Shown piece by piece: positions 9,970-29,706 of a DNA stretch of 38,310 nt. Within the stretch, counting starts at the first letter, position 1; every line of letters starts with the position of its first letter. Origin of the DNA: a virus; the IMG/VR virus record IMGVR_UViG_3300043932_000190. The stretch is one strand, 5' to 3'. The position numbers and the translations under genes were made by a program. Below the pieces are notes generated by a model. The model saw only the letters and a list, made by a program, of their open reading frames with translations. It did no database searches and had not been told where the DNA came from.

Positions 9970-10214
9970 ATCCGGTACAAAGAAAGACAATCCGGTACAA
10001 AATGAAATGTACCGGGTGCGGTACCGGATTTTCAACTGATTCCATCCATCTGTATCAGGGAAAAGCACAAAAAAATACCGCAAGTAAGCGGCTTTTATAT
10101 CGAAGAGATGCGGTAATAACGTTTGAAAAATTGGCTCAACTATTTGGATTCAGTAATCGTTAACTTGCTAGCCATCAGCGTTTGACCGGTGTTGTACCGG
10201 ATTGGTACCGGATT
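9970..10214. repeat. attP region with arm-type repeats built on a GTACCGG core
   Basis: atccggtacaa occurs at 9970-9980 and 9990-10000. The inverted form ((t/g)gtaccgg(at)) occurs at 10008-10016, 10020-10029, 10192-10202 and 10203-10213; the last two lie inside the 3' end of int. Confidence 0.6.
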
Positions 10215-11409
10215 TGGTCGAAGAATCGTTTGAATCATCTAAAAGTCCGCCTTGCATCACTCGAAAAACTTGTTGTGCACCCTCTGCAGTTGGACGAGTG
10301 TATTCATTCGTCATGGTGATATTTTTGTGGCCGAGCCAATGCATTACACTCATATCCGGCAGCCCCTTTTCCAAGGCTTGAGTAGCAAAGTAATGCCGCA
10401 ACATGTGGGGACGCACTTCAACACCGCTGGCTTTTGAGACTTTCTTGAAAATTCGGATGTTGACGCGGCCAGGGTGGGGCGGCATGCCAGTTCGTTCGTC
10501 CAAGTAAACAAACGTGTTTTCGTTGCAGACACGGTGAGTTTTCGCGCAGATATCTTTCGAATGTTGCAGCATATCATCAATGTAAACGACAATGCCCCCG
10601 CGAACATAGATTTCCCGTTCAGATGATTCAGTCTTAAGTTTACCACCGTTGGGCTCAGCTAGGGTGCGGCCAACGTAAAAATGGATCCGATAATAATCCC
10701 CGATGTCATCGTGGCCTTTCCGAAACGACCGAAACTGTAAACCAAGGGCCTCAGAGCGCCGTTCCCCGAGCGTGAGCAGATAGAGCATGGTCATATCGTA
10801 CTTTGAAAGGATTCCCTGAGCCGTATGCATGAATTTGTGGAAACCAGCCTGGGAAAGTGATTGGTCCTTTGGTTTTTTGGCTCCTTCAATACCAATTCCA
10901 CGGAGTCTGTTTTTATCAATGATGTCGTTCATTTCCGCAGTGTTCATTACATTTTGCATCACCTGATCGATTGTCCGAATAGTTAGTTTGGCGTACCCGT
11001 CTTCAACTTTTTGATCAATCAACCGCTGATAACCTGCACGGCTGATTTCAGCCATTGGTGTGTTGCCATAGACCGGCCGGAGATGCTTATTGAAATAATG
11101 ATTGTTCTGGAGAACGGTATTTTTCCGCCAACGACCAAGTGCTGTCTTTCTTTCAACCATCTGGTCAAAATATTGTCCGAGCGTCACGCCACGGTGAGTA
11201 ATCGGGCTAACTTGCCCGGTAGCGAGTGATGCCTCAAAATTTTTCAAAACAACATCAGCGTCTCGCCAAGTTAAAAAGCCAGACTTTGTGAACTCGTCGT
11301 TTTTTCCTACACTATTTTGAAATCCCCGACGAATTCCAAATCGCTTACCGCGACGAGTATCGTACTCGTAAACGTTTGGGTGCCTGGGGACCTGTGTCCA
11401 TTTCCGCAT
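10168..11409 (-). CDS. int: Tyrosine integrase
   Basis: C-terminal catalytic motifs (...RRSEALGL..., HMLRHYFATQALEKG, WLGHKNITMTNEYTR). The start is probably ATG 11409 (MRKWTQVPRHPNVYEY); the longer track ORF starts at 11454. Confidence 0.9.
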   Translation of the reverse strand: MRKWTQVPRHPNVYEYDTRRGKRFGIRRGFQNSVGKNDEFTKSGFLTWRDADVVLKNFEASLATGQVSPITHRGVTLGQYFDQMVERKTALGRWRKNTVLQNNHYFNKHLRPVYGNTPMAEISRAGYQRLIDQKVEDGYAKLTIRTIDQVMQNVMNTAEMNDIIDKNRLRGIGIEGAKKPKDQSLSQAGFHKFMHTAQGILSKYDMTMLYLLTLGERRSEALGLQFRSFRKGHDDIGDYYRIHFYVGRTLAEPNGGKLKTESSEREIYVRGGIVVYIDDMLQHSKDICAKTHRVCNENTFVYLDERTGMPPHPGRVNIRIFKKVSKASGVEVRPHMLRHYFATQALEKGLPDMSVMHWLGHKNITMTNEYTRPTAEGAQQVFRVMQGGLLDDSNDSSTKSGTNPVQHRSNADG

Positions 11410-11473
11410 AATCAGTGATCCTTCCATTTGTGTAATTCCAGTAGGCAAATACACACACCAGTTCGACTTAAGT

Positions 11474-12621: not shown

Positions 12622-13071
12622 TCACTCCGCATGGTCGTCGGTTTCACTACCGCGGTATTTCTTTGGCGTGAACTTCTTCTTGGCCAGCACCTTCGAGAGG
12701 ATCATGGTTTGGCGCAAAGATGCTTCCAGTAATTCACGATCCGTTTCGGTCAGCTCCGAGCCATTCTTGAAATAGTTCACGCCGGCTTTCCCAGTCACTC
12801 CCGCCATCGCATCCTCGAGCATCTGATCCACGTCTTTGTAATCCTTCTTGGTAAGAGAGTAGTAGTGTCGCTTATTCGTTTTGCCCAACAAGTAATCAGT
12901 AGAAACGTTGAAAAGAGTTGCGAGCTTAACGAGGTCGTCGTTGCCTATTCCTCGCCTATCATTTTCCCAGCTGGTAACAGTGCTCTGGCTGACATTCATT
13001 TTGGATGCAAGCATCGGTTGCGTCATGGATCGTTCTTTCCGGAGTGTCGCAATTCTTTCACCCATTGTCAT
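12622..13071 (-). CDS. cI-like XRE-family repressor (ImmR-like)
   Basis: Start refined to ATG 13071 (MTMGERIATLRKERSMTQ..) with RBS ggaggtg 6 nt upstream. N-terminal HTH_XRE; no S24 peptidase domain; paired with ImmA. Confidence 0.85.
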   Translation of the reverse strand: MTMGERIATLRKERSMTQPMLASKMNVSQSTVTSWENDRRGIGNDDLVKLATLFNVSTDYLLGKTNKRHYYSLTKKDYKDVDQMLEDAMAGVTGKAGVNYFKNGSELTETDRELLEASLRQTMILSKVLAKKKFTPKKYRGSETDDHAE

Positions 13072-13210
13072 AAAAGCACCTCCACGATTTGTATTATAGG
13101 TTGTACGGATAGTAAGTGCCAAATATTTTTGACAAAGTTGTACAAAAACGGTTGACTTGTACGAATTGTAGATGTACGATATGTACATAAATAACAAAGG
13201 AGGTAATCGA
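13072..13210. promoter_or_regulatory. Divergent genetic-switch region with repeated TGTAC operator-like half sites
   Basis: TGTAC occurs at 13102, 13139, 13158, 13173 and 13182, plus TGTAG at 13167. Rightward promoter: ttgact (13152-57), 17 nt, tacgat (13175-80). Leftward promoter: tataat (complement of 13093-98) with ttggca 18 nt upstream. Confidence 0.6.
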
Positions 13211-25430: not shown

Positions 25431-25883
25431 ATGATGCGGATAGTACAGACATACTGGCGAAGATTAGACCATGAGGCAACAGCGACAAATGCCGAAGCGG
25501 TGTTGATGGACTATCGGCATCGGAAGCATAAGGCCAAGCGGAACGAGGTGACCATTCAGTCCCCACAGATGGACGGGATGCCTAGATCACCAAGCACGGA
25601 AAACGCTCAGGAGAATAAGATTCTGCGAGACCTGGAAGACGGAGAGTTTTGTCAGCAATGTGATCGGGTCATTAGTGCTATTGAGAGCAGTGAGGGGCGC
25701 ACCATCCTGCGGCTCTTGTATACGGTGGGCCGGCCACCCAAGGTGGAATCGATCATGGAGCAGCTTGGAATGCAGTCAACGGCTTATTATCATGCCAGGG
25801 AGGATGCATTGGTGGCATTTGCGGAGTTATGGCCGCCATCACCAAGCGAGCTGCTGGTCTATCGTACCGAAAAACGAGCGTAA
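25431..25883 (+). CDS. ArpU-family late transcriptional regulator (sigma region-4-like)
   Basis: 150 aa. Features: YRHRKHKAKRNEV, ...DGMPRSPS.., C-terminal HTH-like LGMQSTAYYHAREDALVAFAE. It holds the typical position of the last early gene before the packaging module. Confidence 0.7.
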   Translation: MMRIVQTYWRRLDHEATATNAEAVLMDYRHRKHKAKRNEVTIQSPQMDGMPRSPSTENAQENKILRDLEDGEFCQQCDRVISAIESSEGRTILRLLYTVGRPPKVESIMEQLGMQSTAYYHAREDALVAFAELWPPSPSELLVYRTEKRA

Positions 25884-26014
25884 CAAACCCATGAAGAAGT
25901 CGTAAGTAAGTCGTGACACGGGCGTAAGTGTTTCCATCGTATTATGGTATTGTGCCAAAGACGTGTGGGGCTTCCTCCCCGGACCGCACGCATAATTTAC
26001 TGATACCAATTGGT

Positions 26015-26059
26015 AGGACGGAGCAGGTCAATATCCGGGTTCGATTCCCGGTCGTCCTA
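26015..26059 (+). ncRNA. tRNA-like minihelix TL1 (acceptor stem plus canonical T arm only)
   Basis: aggacgg - 13 nt - ccggg ttcgatt cccgg - tcgtcct - a. 7-bp acceptor (one G-U), canonical TTCGATT T-loop, no D or anticodon arms. Confidence 0.45.
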
Positions 26060-26217
26060 TTGCCCACGTTTCCATTAGATGATGTGTTCAAACTAAAAAA
26101 TGGATCGCACTGCTCGACATCGGGTGGTGCGGATAGCAAACATATGCGGTGGGCAAAAATAGTCATGCGAGGACCCATACTGCTACTGCGTACATAGCAA
26201 TATGGCGAGCATACGGC

Positions 26218-26289
26218 TCTGCTGAGCATCTCCAACTGGTGGAGAGTCAGGAAACTGATACGTTGTTGGTTCGACTCCAACCGGCGGAA
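26218..26289 (+). ncRNA. tRNA-like module TL2 (72 nt), with the anticodon arm replaced by a GAAA-capped hairpin
   Basis: Acceptor tctgctg/cggcgga (two G-U pairs). D arm ctcc-aactggt-ggag. Hairpin gtcag-gaaa-ctgat. Variable region acgtt. T arm gttgg-ttcgact-ccaac. Discriminator a. Confidence 0.45.
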
Positions 26290-26366
26290 TTATCCAGTTT
26301 AATAGCTGGATTGTAAGGAAGGTTCGACCGTTCGCAGGCGAAACCTTGTGTGTAAGCCTGTTAGAT

Positions 26367-26468
26367 ATCACTGTGGCGGAATAGGTAGACGCTGGGACAC
26401 GGAGATGATGTGATAAAGACGCGCCGGTGAACGCACATCATGTCAGGTGCAAATCCTGACCAGTGATA
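26367..26468 (+). ncRNA. tRNA-like module TL3 with a class-II (Leu-like) D arm and a long insert hairpin
   Basis: Acceptor atcactg/cagtgat (extendable to 9 bp). tg-gcg-gaataggtaga-cgc closely resembles a tRNA-Leu D arm. 8-bp stem atgatgtg/cacatcat (26405-12/26434-41). T-like arm gtcagg-tgcaaat-cctgac. No 7-nt anticodon loop. Confidence 0.4.
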
Positions 26469-26590
26469 TAGGCGCACCGTCTAGCGGCTTTGCTGGGCCG
26501 ATAAGACGCCAAAGAGAGTACCGGCATGGCCGTGCCGGGAAGGATTGCTTTAGATTCCAGGACTCGGCAGCCATCGCCTGGACAGCAGAT

Positions 26591-26662
26591 GCAGTCGAAG
26601 CTTAATTGCTATTGGATCACCAGCCAAAGGCGGTGTTGCGGGTCCGAATCCCGTCGGCTGTA
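26591..26662 (+). ncRNA. tRNA-like module TL4 (72 nt), non-canonical
   Basis: Acceptor gcagtcg/cggctgt (two G-U pairs). Short D-like arm agc-ttaatt-gct. 4-bp stem ttgg/ccaa with an 8-nt loop. T arm gcggg-tccgaat-cccgt (T-loop has C at position 55). Confidence 0.35.
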
Positions 26663-26734
26663 TAATTGCGGGCAACCGTTTCGGCGGTACCGGGGAGAAT
26701 TCCCCCAGAGCAGAGGACCTCTACACAAGCCTCA

Positions 26735-26807
26735 AGGACGATAGCACTGTTGGAAGTGCGCCGGAAAGACGTCACCGGAGAAACGGGTCCGAATCCCGTG
26801 AGTCCTA
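26735..26807 (+). ncRNA. tRNA-like module TL5 (73 nt), non-canonical
   Basis: Acceptor aggacga/gagtcct (5 of 7 bp; a perfect partner aggactc lies at 26559-65). Perfect D arm gcac-tgttggaa-gtgc. ccgg/ccgg stem with a 10-nt loop. T arm acggg-tccgaat-cccgt. Same 3' trailer (a ttgcccac) as TL1. Confidence 0.4.
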
Positions 26808-26830
26808 TTGCCCACACACATCAGAAAGGA
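26807..26830 (+). repeat. Direct repeat copy A (attgcccacacacatcagaaagga)
   Basis: Matches 26978-26999 apart from one extra CA. It supplies the SD sequence (aaaggag) of the 40-aa ORF. Confidence 0.8.
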
Positions 26831-26840
26831 GACAACATTG

Positions 26841-26963
26841 ATGAAGAAGCGGTTTGCAAAGTTTGTTTTTGAAGTTTTAACTGGGAAAATCCATCTTGTT
26901 GAAAGCAGTCGATCAAACTCACTTGATGGAGTTTCAAGCTTTGACTTTAAAGCCACTCACTAA
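26841..26963 (+). CDS. Small ORF (40 aa), not in the ORF track
   Basis: ATG 26841 lies 8-9 nt after the strong SD sequence gaaaggag. Product MKKRFAKFVFEVLTGKIHLVESSRSNSLDGVSSFDFKATH. AT-richer than its flanks and bracketed by 22-24-nt direct repeats. Confidence 0.45.
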   Translation: MKKRFAKFVFEVLTGKIHLVESSRSNSLDGVSSFDFKATH

Positions 26964-26999: not shown

Positions 27000-27034
27000 T
27001 GCGAAGACCGCCTGAACTCGGTCGTGGGCATTAC

Positions 27035-27106
27035 CGCCGGGCAGAGCGATGGACGCTTGCGTGCCTCATAAGCACGAGACTGCCGGTTCGATTCCGGCCC
27101 TGGCAA
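27035..27106 (+). tRNA. tRNA with anticodon CAU (Met, fMet or Ile2-type); no encoded CCA
   Basis: Hand-folded cloverleaf: cgccggg ca gagc gatggac gctt g cgtgc cTCATAa gcacg agact gccgg ttcgatt ccggc cctggca a. It has a C1xA72 mismatch, a G10-U25 pair, GG in the D loop, and U33/A37. Confidence 0.75.
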
Positions 27107-27153
27107 TTTGCCCGTAAAAAATAAGCTTAGTTCACTTAATTCACACGGGCAAA
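27107..27153 (+). other. 9-bp inverted repeat (tttgcccgt / acgggcaaa) immediately 3' of the tRNA
   Basis: 27107-15 is perfectly complementary to 27145-53, with a 29-nt loop. It repeats the TTGCCC-trailer/complement pattern seen after TL1 and after repeat copy B. Confidence 0.5.
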
Positions 27154-27215
27154 TGAGTCACCTCAGGATAGTATCTCAGCGCGAGTTGGGGTACTATTTC
27201 TGTGAGGTGACAAAA

Positions 27216-28103
27216 ATGGGATTATATTACACGGCAAAGCTGAACATTAGTGGGAATCTTTTTAGCAATAACCTTCAGGAAATCAAGTTAAAGGCTATTC
27301 CTGAAACTTTAATGAAATTTTCGGACCAACAGTTTGGTGAGAAAATGGTCGTTAAAGAGAGCACTCAGAAAACTGCAAATTCCGTTCGATACAATCGCTG
27401 GATTTTGACAGACATGGAAAAGATCGACGAAGGAATTATTGAAGGAAACTTAACAAAGATATTTCCGAGAGAGGAAATAGTGCTGGAAGGTGTACGAACC
27501 AAAACCACTGTTGAGGACCAAATCCGGACTGCACATTTCTTCTATGTCATAAGGGATGAGTTGCTGGCTTTTCAATCCACGACAGATATTAATTATCAAG
27601 TATTCCCTCGAAAGTTTGAAATACTCATGAAAAAAGCTGATACGGACTTACAAATTGGAGATGTGAGGATTGAGCTTCTCACTAGGATAGACGAATTCAA
27701 ACAGAAACTTTTTTCTCAACCTGTTCGAAGAGTACTATTGAAATTTGTAACGCCAAATGATCCAAAAACAACCGATTCAATTGCTGATATTCTCTTAGGG
27801 AGCCGCGCAAAAAAAGCAGACTTTAAAATGGAGAATTTTACTGATGATGAGGGTTTGCAAGCTAAAGATAGTGATGGACAGCCGGTAAAACTTTTTTCTG
27901 ATTTCTTTCTTCTTCTTGAGCGCGGGTACGGATCTTTAAAAGCATGGGTGGGAAACAGGAACCGACCTGAGGTTATAGAATCAGAAAAATTTCCTGTTAA
28001 GGCAAATATTCGTAGGTCTACTAACAAAACGAAAACCATTGCGGATATTGAAAGCGAAGTGAAAAAGATTGAAAAGCTCAAGTCAAGCAAAAAAGACGAG
28101 TAA
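27216..28103 (+). CDS. Unknown soluble protein (295 aa), gene A of the AT-rich two-gene accessory cassette
   Basis: Start refined to ATG 27216 with gaggtga 7 nt upstream; the track start at 27108 would begin directly after the tRNA, inside the hairpin. Visibly lower G+C than the rest of the phage. No catalytic motif recognised. Lys-rich C-terminal tail. Confidence 0.7.
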   Translation: MGLYYTAKLNISGNLFSNNLQEIKLKAIPETLMKFSDQQFGEKMVVKESTQKTANSVRYNRWILTDMEKIDEGIIEGNLTKIFPREEIVLEGVRTKTTVEDQIRTAHFFYVIRDELLAFQSTTDINYQVFPRKFEILMKKADTDLQIGDVRIELLTRIDEFKQKLFSQPVRRVLLKFVTPNDPKTTDSIADILLGSRAKKADFKMENFTDDEGLQAKDSDGQPVKLFSDFFLLLERGYGSLKAWVGNRNRPEVIESEKFPVKANIRRSTNKTKTIADIESEVKKIEKLKSSKKDE

Positions 28104-28620
28104 GAACGTAATCAAGAGATCAAAGTTTATCCATGGGCTTCTTGCAAACCCTCGTTATTCGATATTTAATTGGAGTTTCTGGACGTCTTTGCTTCTTACA
28201 ATCATTACCTTAATATTCGGCGGGAACACCACTGCATACATTGCTTTAAATTATTTAATGAGACATAGTTTTGATCTGGTTTCAATGTCAGTGGGGGCAA
28301 TTGGAGTTATACTTGCCGCAATTGCTATTTTAGTCGTGATATTCAGTCGACAGGGATTGGCAAGAATAGTTGCAGCTGATGAACAAACGTTTGAAGGATT
28401 CATATTTCCGTATAGACTGTCCGCAACCATTTGGGCAATTTTAGCGGTTTGGTCGCTTTTTGTTCCATTGTTGAATAATGGTTTGAATATTAGCGTCAAG
28501 CTTGCAATTGCTTATGTCTGGTTATTTCTGATTTTATACGCAATGTTGTATGTTCTTTACTTAATTGGTGAAATTATTCAGAACATTCTTTTGTCGGCGG
28601 AAATTGAAAGCAAAAAGTAG
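28069..28620 (+). CDS. Four-TM membrane protein (183 aa), gene B of the cassette
   Basis: TTG start overlapping gene A by 35 nt (possible coupling). Basic N-terminus followed by four hydrophobic helices: WTSLLLTIITLIFGG, SVGAIGVILAAIAILVVIF, ATIWAILAVWSLFVPLL, IAYVWLFLILYAMLYVLYLIG. Confidence 0.7.
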   Translation: MKSSSQAKKTSKNVIKRSKFIHGLLANPRYSIFNWSFWTSLLLTIITLIFGGNTTAYIALNYLMRHSFDLVSMSVGAIGVILAAIAILVVIFSRQGLARIVAADEQTFEGFIFPYRLSATIWAILAVWSLFVPLLNNGLNISVKLAIAYVWLFLILYAMLYVLYLIGEIIQNILLSAEIESKK

Positions 28621-28678
28621 ACTAAAAAGCTTTGTTGTTGCTAAAGACGTCCAAAGGTATCTTTATGACTTTGCACAG

Positions 28679-28710
28679 GCACTCCACCAAGCGGTGAAGT
28701 GCTATTTTTA
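28679..28710 (+). terminator. Rho-independent terminator ending the cassette
   Basis: gcact-c-cacc-aagc-ggtg-a-agtgc hairpin followed by tattttta. Confidence 0.65.
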
Positions 28711-28712
28711 TG

Positions 28713-28744
28713 CAAACAAAAACCACCGGCTATTGGGTCGGTGG
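28713..28744 (-). terminator. Minus-strand-oriented intrinsic terminator, back to back with the plus-strand one
   Basis: Hairpin ccaccggct-attg-gggtcggtgg (28723-44) is preceded on the + strand by caaacaaaaa. On the minus strand this reads as hairpin plus tttttgtttg. Confidence 0.5.
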
Positions 28745-28890
28745 CCAAAAGGTAGTATCGGTTGGGGAAATAATGTAGCAGCTTAGCAACCACAGGGGGG
28801 TCGTGCATTGCTTTATTTCCTTACCAGTTATTATGCACCCGGTCAACCGCCGGATGCAATAGATGAGCACAAGATTTTGGAGGTGGTTCC

Positions 28891-29019
28891 ATGCCCAAGA
28901 GGATCCACACGAAGTACGGCTATGAGCCACCTGAATATGTTAAGGCGGACTCCGAACTAGAGAAATGGCTGAAAAAGCAAAAAGAGAAGGACAACGACGA
29001 GGGCACCAGTGGCAAATGA
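28891..29019 (+). CDS. Small ORF (42 aa), not in the ORF track
   Basis: ATG 28891 lies 5-6 nt after the strong SD sequence ggaggtg. Product MPKRIHTKYGYEPPEYVKADSELEKWLKKQKEKDNDEGTSGK. Confidence 0.5.
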   Translation: MPKRIHTKYGYEPPEYVKADSELEKWLKKQKEKDNDEGTSGK

Positions 29020-29058: not shown

Positions 29059-29706
29059 ATGGCCAAAGGGAAGTATCAAGAATGGCAGACACCAGAGCGG
29101 TTGGCATTGCTTGAAGGCTGGGCGCGCGATGGGTTAACTGACGAACAAATAGCCCACAACATCGGCGTTCGTAGAGAAACTTTGTATGCGTGGAAAAAGG
29201 CACATCCTAACATTTCTAACGCCCTAAAGAAAGGCAAGGAAATTGTTGACCAAATGGTCGCTGGCTCGCTGATTAGGCGTGCGCTGGGAATGACAGTGAC
29301 CAATACCACGTATAAGATGGTTCCTCTCCGAGAGGACGTGCTGGAAGCAAGACGAACACGCTGGCGTAATGAATATCAGCTGGATCATCCTGAGTTGACT
29401 CGTAAGCAACTAGTTCAGGCCTCAATTGAGAATGTCCCAACTTATGAAAAAATCCCGATCATTGTTAATGAAAACGAGTTGGCGCCGGATACCTCAGCAC
29501 AAATATTCTGGTTGAAGAATCGGAAGCCTGAGTTATTCCGTGATCAAGCGTTCAAAGGCCTTAATGAAGCGCAGGCTCGCAAGGCCAAAGCCGAAGCGGA
29601 GATTGCTGAAGCCAAGGCCAAACGTGAGACCAGCGAAGACACGAGCAACATCACAATCAACATCAAGCCAATTCAGCAAGGAGGAGACGATGACGGTGCA
29701 AATTAA
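29059..29706 (+). CDS. terS: Terminase small subunit
   Basis: 215 aa. N-terminal HTH-like region (LLEGWARDGLTDEQIAHNIGVRRETLYAWKK). Immediately upstream of, and overlapping, terL. Confidence 0.8.
   Translation: MAKGKYQEWQTPERLALLEGWARDGLTDEQIAHNIGVRRETLYAWKKAHPNISNALKKGKEIVDQMVAGSLIRRALGMTVTNTTYKMVPLREDVLEARRTRWRNEYQLDHPELTRKQLVQASIENVPTYEKIPIIVNENELAPDTSAQIFWLKNRKPELFRDQAFKGLNEAQARKAKAEAEIAEAKAKRETSEDTSNITINIKPIQQGGDDDGAN

Follow-up and report, generated by a model that had tools for sequence, protein, structure and literature searches.

A DUF4747 gene and its four-transmembrane partner form mobile prophage cargo with a putative exclusion role of the RexAB/CarolAnn class

The virus record IMGVR_UViG_3300043932_000190 of IMG/VR (one strand of 38,310 nt, hereafter called the window) carries an AT-rich two-gene cassette, in which gene A encodes a soluble protein of 295 aa and gene B, directly downstream, a four-transmembrane protein of 183 aa (all coordinates are collected in Table 1). 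A sequence-only reading of this DNA had proposed a candidate prophage defense system, perhaps an undescribed one, and had placed neither protein in a named family. Our analysis supports the cargo nature of the cassette and its soluble/four-transmembrane defense layout. However, the gene A protein belongs to DUF4747 (PF15931), and a DUF4747 protein followed by a four-transmembrane protein is the published architecture, in the same gene order, of RexAB, CarolAnn, Sbash and Butters. The cassette is therefore a new Bacillota member of a known exclusion class and not an undescribed system, its defense role being putative. We favor, with moderate confidence, the interpretation that it is a horizontally acquired two-component prophage exclusion module of the abortive-infection type, in the class of RexAB, CarolAnn gp44-gp43 and Sbash gp30-gp31.

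Family and predicted fold of the gene A protein

Direct hmmscan of the gene A protein against Pfam, PADLOC, PHROGs and NCBIfam gave nothing significant, and the sole hmmscan matches for either protein were a chance match to HTH_20 (E 0.2) and weak PHROGs of unknown function. The assignment to DUF4747 draws on precomputed PF15931.11 matches and on relatives. Precomputed matches lie on a 100% identical protein, P0001 (a hypothetical protein in a metagenome-assembled genome of Schleiferilactobacillus harbinensis), and on a 90% identical one, P0002, where the match is unmarked and so has E <= 1e-5; a search with the family profile found PF15931 on 12 of 12 matched proteins; and in our own hmmscan against PF15931.10, 5 of 30 aligned relatives matched DUF4747, with a best E of 4e-7. 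Taken together, these profile matches identify the gene A protein as a member of DUF4747. The family is small, as phmmer against 1.84 billion representatives returned 32 proteins at E <= 1e-3, nearly all of them 270 to 300 aa long. The open reading frame (ORF) of gene A stays open back to a TTG at 27108, and every homologue begins at the position of the M-x-x-Y-Y-x-A-K-L-N motif.

The AlphaFold2 model of the gene A protein, built on a 30-sequence alignment, reached a predicted local distance difference test (pLDDT) score of 86.9 and a predicted template modeling (pTM) score of 0.85. In this model, an N-terminal β-rich domain (residues ~1 to 141) is followed by an inserted β-α-β-α-β-α-β domain (~149 to 246) with a four-stranded central sheet plus helices, and the C-terminal part (~251 to 295) rejoins the first domain and finishes with a long helix (271 to 290). 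By searching the PDB with Foldseek, we found that Escherichia coli RdgC (2owl, 2owy) occupied ranks 1 to 3 (E 6.5e-4, probability 0.94) and that a chain of the kinetochore complex CCAN (constitutive centromere-associated network) appeared at ranks 19 and 41. Among predicted viral structures, the best matches were uncharacterized gut-virome phage proteins of 277 to 322 aa (E 1e-11 to 1e-7), and the next were phage RdgC-like proteins. Neither phmmer of the gene A protein nor the 30-sequence family profile matched any PDB sequence.

These structural matches point to a predicted two-domain fold of the RdgC/RexA-like class. The paper on the RexA crystal structure describes a split globular domain (1 to 139 and 248 to 279) with an inserted four-stranded dimerization domain (143 to 234), and as structural relatives it names RdgC (2OWL) together with IML3/CHL4 of the yeast inner kinetochore. 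The gene A model would share this plan, with a split globular domain, an inserted β-α domain at near-equal boundaries and RdgC as the nearest solved fold, and the neighbor lists of RexA and of the gene A model both include kinetochore proteins. RdgC, the best Foldseek match, is similar to gene A in length (~300 aa) but is only 8 to 10% identical, and it is a housekeeping protein without a membrane partner.

The membrane partner, its linkage to gene A and the mobility of the pair

Gene B is annotated shorter elsewhere, as 143 aa by NCBI and as 113 aa by other gene callers. Because its first 40 residues are conserved at the protein level in homologues of 41 to 51% identity, we conclude that the 183-aa form is correct. 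The four hydrophobic segments lie at residues ~36 to 52, 75 to 91, 119 to 135 and 150 to 166, and the N terminus is basic, with eight K/R and no D/E among the first 35 residues, both in agreement with the sequence-only reading. According to the positive-inside charges, both termini and the loop between the second and third segments are cytoplasmic, and it is in this loop (E109 and F111 to R116) that conservation is highest. Damaged natural alleles also occur: in L012 (8827 to 9372), gene B carries the nonsense mutation W46* (TGG to TAG), while the near-identical prophages L013 and L014 are otherwise the same here, and in L044 (1215 to 1547), gene B is cut to 110 aa. Such nonsense and truncated alleles fit a membrane effector that is costly.

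The contigs of eleven A homologues were examined for neighboring genes. In every locus that keeps downstream sequence, A is directly followed by a protein of 174 to 193 aa without a Pfam domain, and this arrangement holds for the window and for 10 other distinct A loci, the spacing ranging from the 35-nt overlap to a 66-nt gap. Hydropathy gave four transmembrane segments in 10 of 10 full-length partners (window, L001, L003, L008, L009, L014, L015, L017, L019 and L020), a count that covers these ten; the 193-aa partner in L043 enters by its length and position. Gene B homologues of 41 to 51% identity, in turn, always adjoin an A gene where upstream sequence exists, and the B proteins form two subfamilies that track the A subfamilies, a pattern of co-divergence. 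Thus, the co-occurrence of the two genes beyond this phage, which the sequence-only reading had made a touchstone of its proposal, holds in every examined locus of this kind. A small additional sign may come from the models, since 'Siphoviridae sp. ctylc9', the virome phage whose 172-aa protein is the best fold match of the gene B model (E 0.13), also encodes the third-best viral structural match of the gene A model; these shared matches would be an independent indication that A and B travel together.

The pair is also foreign to its surroundings. Its guanine-plus-cytosine (GC) content is 37.6%, against 48.4 ± 2.1% across all other 1405-nt segments (z = -5.0), the lowest of which (44.4%) still lies above the cassette, and GC at third codon positions is 0.37 compared with 0.45 to 0.59 in the adjacent genes, so that the AT-richness first seen by eye is borne out. 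In the closest relatives, L005 to L007, the match begins and ends exactly at the edges of a conserved block running from the leader to the plus-strand terminator (Table 1), while the neighboring activator gene is 70 to 82% identical.

Three genomic contexts were found for the pair. In the first, it is bordered by a late activator gene on one side and terS on the other; the phages concerned have small/large terminases of four types that are unrelated to one another, and this position recurs in at least six phage lineages. In the second (L020), it stands 3' of holin and amidase genes at the prophage end, beside the host amt/P-II genes. In the third (L001), its surroundings are a restriction-modification island, where 6.8 kb of sequence holds no phage genes. 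Homologues that are core genes of lytic phages had been set beforehand as a refutation of the defense proposal; no such core genes emerged, since a search of 50,697 phage records gave no match either to A and B by tblastn (E <= 0.01) or to the region by megablast. A had no tblastn match in 72,556 plasmids, and a scan with the A alignment over one genome per GTDB species yielded 203 pattern matches, 0 of them confirmed. The cassette is a foreign, self-contained and mobile prophage cargo.

Known exclusion systems and rival explanations

Three experimental papers name DUF4747 as the only recognizable feature common to lambda RexA, Sbash gp30, CarolAnn gp44 and Butters gp30; each of these is followed by a four-transmembrane protein (PMC6426596, PMC6426606, PMC7542560, PMC13373217), and each pair defended the lysogen against heterotypic phages in experiments. 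A 2026 paper also lists a 'DUF4747/CarolAnn prophage system' among immune operons downstream of capK-capS, in 17 cases. Like the cassette, lambda RexAB is prophage-borne, with the soluble gene before the membrane gene and comparable sizes (279 and 144 aa, against 295 and 183 aa here), and RexB, like gene B, has four transmembrane segments and a cytoplasmic loop between the second and third. CarolAnn, Sbash and Butters also resemble the cassette in layout, with a DUF4747-associated soluble protein followed in the same order by a four-transmembrane protein of ~165 to 180 aa. The CarolAnn gp44 and gp43 genes overlap by 26 nt, compared with 35 nt for A and B; the topology of gene B agrees with what has been published for Sbash gp31 and with the hydropathy profiles of RexB and CarolAnn gp43; and the CarolAnn and Sbash pairs are, likewise, prophage cargo whose placement varies between phages.

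There are also differences. RexAB is cotranscribed with cI in the immunity region, whereas the cassette lies ~14 kb from the CI-like gene of its phage; Sbash gp30/gp31 are likewise not linked in this way. The actinophage soluble proteins are longer (370 to 372 aa) and match DUF4747 weakly, by HHpred, whereas relatives of gene A match the Pfam family by HMMER, and the host phylum differs, being Bacillota here. Neither A nor B matched the models of RexA (PF15969 / PDLC02339) or RexB (PF15968 / PDLC02340), which score the lambda proteins at E 1e-97 to 1e-110 and 1e-61 to 1e-92, respectively, and neither had any PADLOC match. PADLOC recognizes lambda RexAB, but the experimentally validated CarolAnn pair escapes it, as does every DUF4747 pair that we tested, and its negative result is therefore uninformative for the DUF4747 class.

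On the model of these systems, the exclusion module that we favor might work as follows. The A protein would be a cytoplasmic, dimeric, DNA-binding sensor of an early protein of the infecting phage or of a replication or recombination intermediate, and it would activate B, a four-pass effector in the inner membrane. Activated B would then compromise the membrane potential and lower ATP, so that the superinfecting phage is aborted, in analogy to the Rex, Sbash and CarolAnn models; the three experimental papers propose that the membrane protein is activated as an ion channel, and in Sbash-protected cells adsorption and DNA entry are normal and early phage genes are expressed. Translation of A and B is probably coupled by their 35-nt overlap, and a hairpin in the leader probably hides the ribosome-binding site of A and keeps expression low. 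The anatomy of the cassette, the family and fold class of A, the topology of B, the A-B linkage and the mobile cargo context come from the results above; for DNA binding, the A-B interaction, the trigger, membrane depolarization and protection, we follow the published models, which are themselves incomplete.

Several results weigh against this interpretation. At the sequence level, the gene A protein itself had no match at E <= 10 to PF15931.10 in our own hmmscan; hhalign of the A profile with RexA or CarolAnn gp44, and of the B profile with RexB or gp43, gave probabilities below 1%; and hmmsearch --max of A and B with RexA, RexB, gp44 and gp43 gave scores of ~0 bits. Among the validated actinophage pairs, the sequence comparison covered CarolAnn gp44/gp43, and Sbash and Butters were compared by description; the RexA relatives in IMG/VR were 76 to 100% identical copies only and of no use for profile comparison. 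At the structural level, the template modeling score (TM-score) between the gene A model and RdgC is low (0.27), which means that the domain arrangement of the model differs from that of RdgC, and RexA (8TWQ), though in the PDB set searched, fell outside the top 50 Foldseek matches. For gene B, the all-helical AlphaFold2 model from a 4-sequence alignment scored a low pLDDT of 66, and searching with its fold did not retrieve RexB. The ion-channel mechanism of lambda RexAB is itself only a model. Finally, three points could speak for a role in the phage's own life: the recurrence of the pair just before terS in many phages, the ability of RexA alone, independently of RexB, to tip the lambda lysis-lysogeny switch toward lysis, and the lack of a consensus promoter for the cassette in our promoter scan.

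The main mechanistic rival, which we regard as unlikely, is a Kiwa-like and non-abortive mode, in which B would sense phage attachment or DNA entry and the RdgC-like A would clamp or coat the entering DNA and thereby stop it from replicating or recombining, the cell surviving. Three observations would suit such a mode: RdgC, a toroidal DNA-binding protein, is the best structural relative of gene A; non-specific DNA binding is known for RexA and its homologues; and in Butters the soluble gp30 has been called the main antagonist, with gp31 as a modulator. Kiwa also couples defense to the membrane through a four-transmembrane KwaA and a ~300-aa soluble KwaB (DUF4868), and the similarity of these sizes to B and A had been pointed out in the sequence-only reading. 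However, the gene order is reversed, the Pfam family is another one, PADLOC (Kiwa included) matched neither protein, and no Kiwa structure stood among the top 50 Foldseek PDB matches of the gene A model. In the literature searched, nothing relevant linked KwaB with RdgC, the sole paper with both terms being an unrelated Drosophila genome paper.

As a system assignment, Kiwa itself was rejected, since no KwaA/KwaB component was matched by PADLOC and the soluble gene comes first here. The comparisons with CBASS (the cyclic-oligonucleotide-based antiphage signaling system), Pycsar and retrons in the sequence-only reading failed in the same way, as neither a cyclase nor a reverse transcriptase was found with Pfam, PADLOC and NCBIfam, and no retron noncoding RNA with Rfam.

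A related and rather improbable idea is that the Bacillota pairs of DUF4747 and four-transmembrane proteins form a distinct branch with a membrane-tethered, RdgC-like DNA clamp. Here B would sense DNA entry and set A free, or bring it into place, so that A traps the genome without killing the cell, and expression would be gated by the hairpin that sequesters the Shine-Dalgarno (SD) sequence of gene A, on read-through from the upstream array of tRNA and tRNA-like elements. If true, this would link RexAB, the CarolAnn-type pairs and possibly Kiwa in one mechanistic superfamily of membrane-coupled DNA sensors.

The main functional rival, to which we likewise give a rather low probability, is that the pair serves the phage's own cycle, as a RexA-like modulator of lysis and lysogeny, an RdgC-like regulator of RecA or recombination, or an accessory where the late (packaging) operon begins. 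It holds this place because the pre-terS position recurs, in at least six lineages, and no promoter of the cassette's own was found; the effect of RexA on the lambda switch and the occurrence of RdgC-like proteins in phages agree with it. Set against this, the pair also occurs past the lysis genes at a prophage end and in the restriction-modification island, it is accompanied by four unrelated terminase types, and the tblastn search of sequenced phages found no homologue; the cassette has a foreign GC content and its own terminator, nonsense alleles of B are tolerated, and the same gap houses toxin-antitoxin cargo.

Two further explanations, even taken together, seem very improbable. One is superinfection exclusion (Sie), in which B would block DNA injection at the membrane and A would play an accessory part; the other is a selfish addiction pair of the toxin-antitoxin type without an antiphage role. 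In their favor, gene B of this prophage does encode a small polytopic membrane protein, and the adjoining cargo is often toxin-antitoxin genes. However, neither explanation accounts for the strict conservation of a soluble partner of 290 aa whose fold is of the DNA-binding type, neither protein resembles known toxin or antitoxin families, and the Sie proteins known from phages of lactic acid bacteria act on their own.

Rex-type exclusion is among the oldest known phage-defense phenomena. The tested relatives, from lambda and actinophages, match DUF4747 weakly, whereas this cassette is a core member of the Pfam family and comes from the tractable Lactobacillaceae, where phage resistance matters for fermentations. 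The ~11 syntenic loci, in which both subfamilies of B and naturally occurring nonsense alleles are represented, offer material for asking which protein is the effector. Since standard detectors miss DUF4747 pairs, such modules are probably undercounted in prophages.

Signals and surroundings of the cassette

The two gene coordinates and the overlap given in the sequence-only reading were reproduced exactly, as were the position after a tRNA gene at the activator/terS junction and the two facing terminators (Table 1). A simple consensus scanner reported neither of these terminators.

Table 1. Features of the cassette and of its surroundings in the window
Feature	Coordinates	Strand	Details
Tyrosine integrase	10171-11454	-	
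CI-like helix-turn-helix gene	12625-13197	-	
Late transcriptional activator (ArpU/RinA-like), left border of cargo hot spot	25431-25883	+	phrog_248, E 2e-29
tRNA-Met(CAT)	27035-27106	+	ARAGORN; Rfam RF00005, 43.5 bits
Inverted repeat between tRNA and conserved block	27106-27154		20-nt arms, 80% complementary; -18.3 kcal/mol, without T-run
Conserved block (leader, gene A, gene B, plus-strand terminator)	27151-28711	+	92% identity over 1566 nt to L005/L006/L007
Leader hairpin, 3' arm includes the gene A SD (GAGGTGA)	27157-27211	+	-34.3 kcal/mol
Gene A, soluble DUF4747 protein, 295 aa	27216-28103	+	ATG start; SD GAGGTGA 5-8 nt upstream
Gene B, membrane protein, 183 aa	28069-28620	+	TTG start; four transmembrane segments by hydropathy
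Intrinsic terminator closing the A-B operon	28679-28716 (hairpin 28679-28710)	+	-15.3 kcal/mol, then TATTTTTAT
Facing terminator	hairpin 28713-28744	-	-11.4 kcal/mol, then TTTTTGTTTG
terS, right border of cargo hot spot	29059-29706	+	phrog_309, E 7e-55

The leader of the cassette is 65 nt long and contains a long, very stable hairpin (z = -4.9; 0 of 200 shuffles were equally stable). The hairpin is retained in the 92% identical loci L005 to L007 despite several substitutions, some of the changes being paired, and L012/L014 show a different anti-SD pairing, which flanks a terminator-like hairpin. We infer that it acts as a translational restraint on a potentially toxic system.

At the other end, the plus-strand terminator forms the right edge of the conserved block, and beyond it, a 162-nt stretch (28712 to 28873) with the minus-strand terminator is missing from L005 to L007. 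On the minus strand of this stretch, we read by eye a weak promoter-like TTGCAT-18-CATAAT upstream of the terminator, and the stretch may hold a small antisense or small RNA gene of ~100 to 125 nt; Rfam returned for it an insignificant rli22-like match (22.5 bits against a gathering score of 80).

The phage that carries the cassette is temperate, with a tyrosine integrase, an M78 peptidase, the CI-like gene and an AntA antirepressor, and its gene set is of siphovirus type, with a tape-measure protein, an amidase, a TerL of Terminase_3 and an SPP1-type portal, the last two following terS in that order. From the activator to terS run a 1.1-kb stretch without a credible large ORF, tRNA-Met, genes A and B and the two facing terminators. 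A similar activator gene stands upstream of the pair in L008, L014, L017 and L019. In L008, L015/L016/L045 and L017, toxin-antitoxin genes (MazE-like antitoxin, ParE, HicA/HicB) adjoin the DUF4747 pair in the activator-terS gap, and the presence of such genes in unrelated phages marks this gap as a general cargo hot spot.

The tRNA-Met gene lies in a 121-nt stretch (27030 to 27150) that blastn found to be missing from L005 to L007. Within the ORF-poor 1.1-kb gap, at 25990 to 26810, we observed four tRNA-like elements (~26008 to 26089, 26201 to 26289, 26573 to 26662 and 26735 to 26807). They preserve intact acceptor stems together with canonical T-arms (GGTTCGAnTCC / GGTCCGAATCC), but their D and anticodon regions are aberrant, one of them bearing a GAAA tetraloop hairpin in place of the anticodon loop. 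They were missed by standard ARAGORN and at the Rfam gathering threshold and were recovered by relaxed ARAGORN and as sub-threshold Rfam tRNA matches (22.6 and 18.2 bits); a repeated trailer, TATTGCCCAC(ACACATCAGAAAGGA), comes after every one of them. At the same site, L005/L006 carry 'tRNA-???' elements with 4-nt or 2-nt anticodon loops, and L012 to L014 carry tRNA-Asn and tRNA-Trp at the corresponding site. These elements may represent tRNA genes in decay, or they may serve as processing signals or as decoys; a large RNA of the GOLLD/ROOL type in the 1.1-kb stretch was rejected, as Rfam gave tRNA-like matches only.

Two short ORFs complete the region. An AT-rich patch within the tRNA-like array holds a 40-aa ORF (26841 to 26963; MKKRFAKFVFEVLTGKIHLVESSRSNSLDGVSSFDFKATH) with a strong SD sequence, AAAGGAG, at a spacing of 9 nt. 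Directly before terS, a 42-aa ORF (28891 to 29016) matches the first 31 residues only of the HNH endonuclease family phrog_25061 (E 1.7e-4), and it probably represents what is left of an HNH gene associated with terS.

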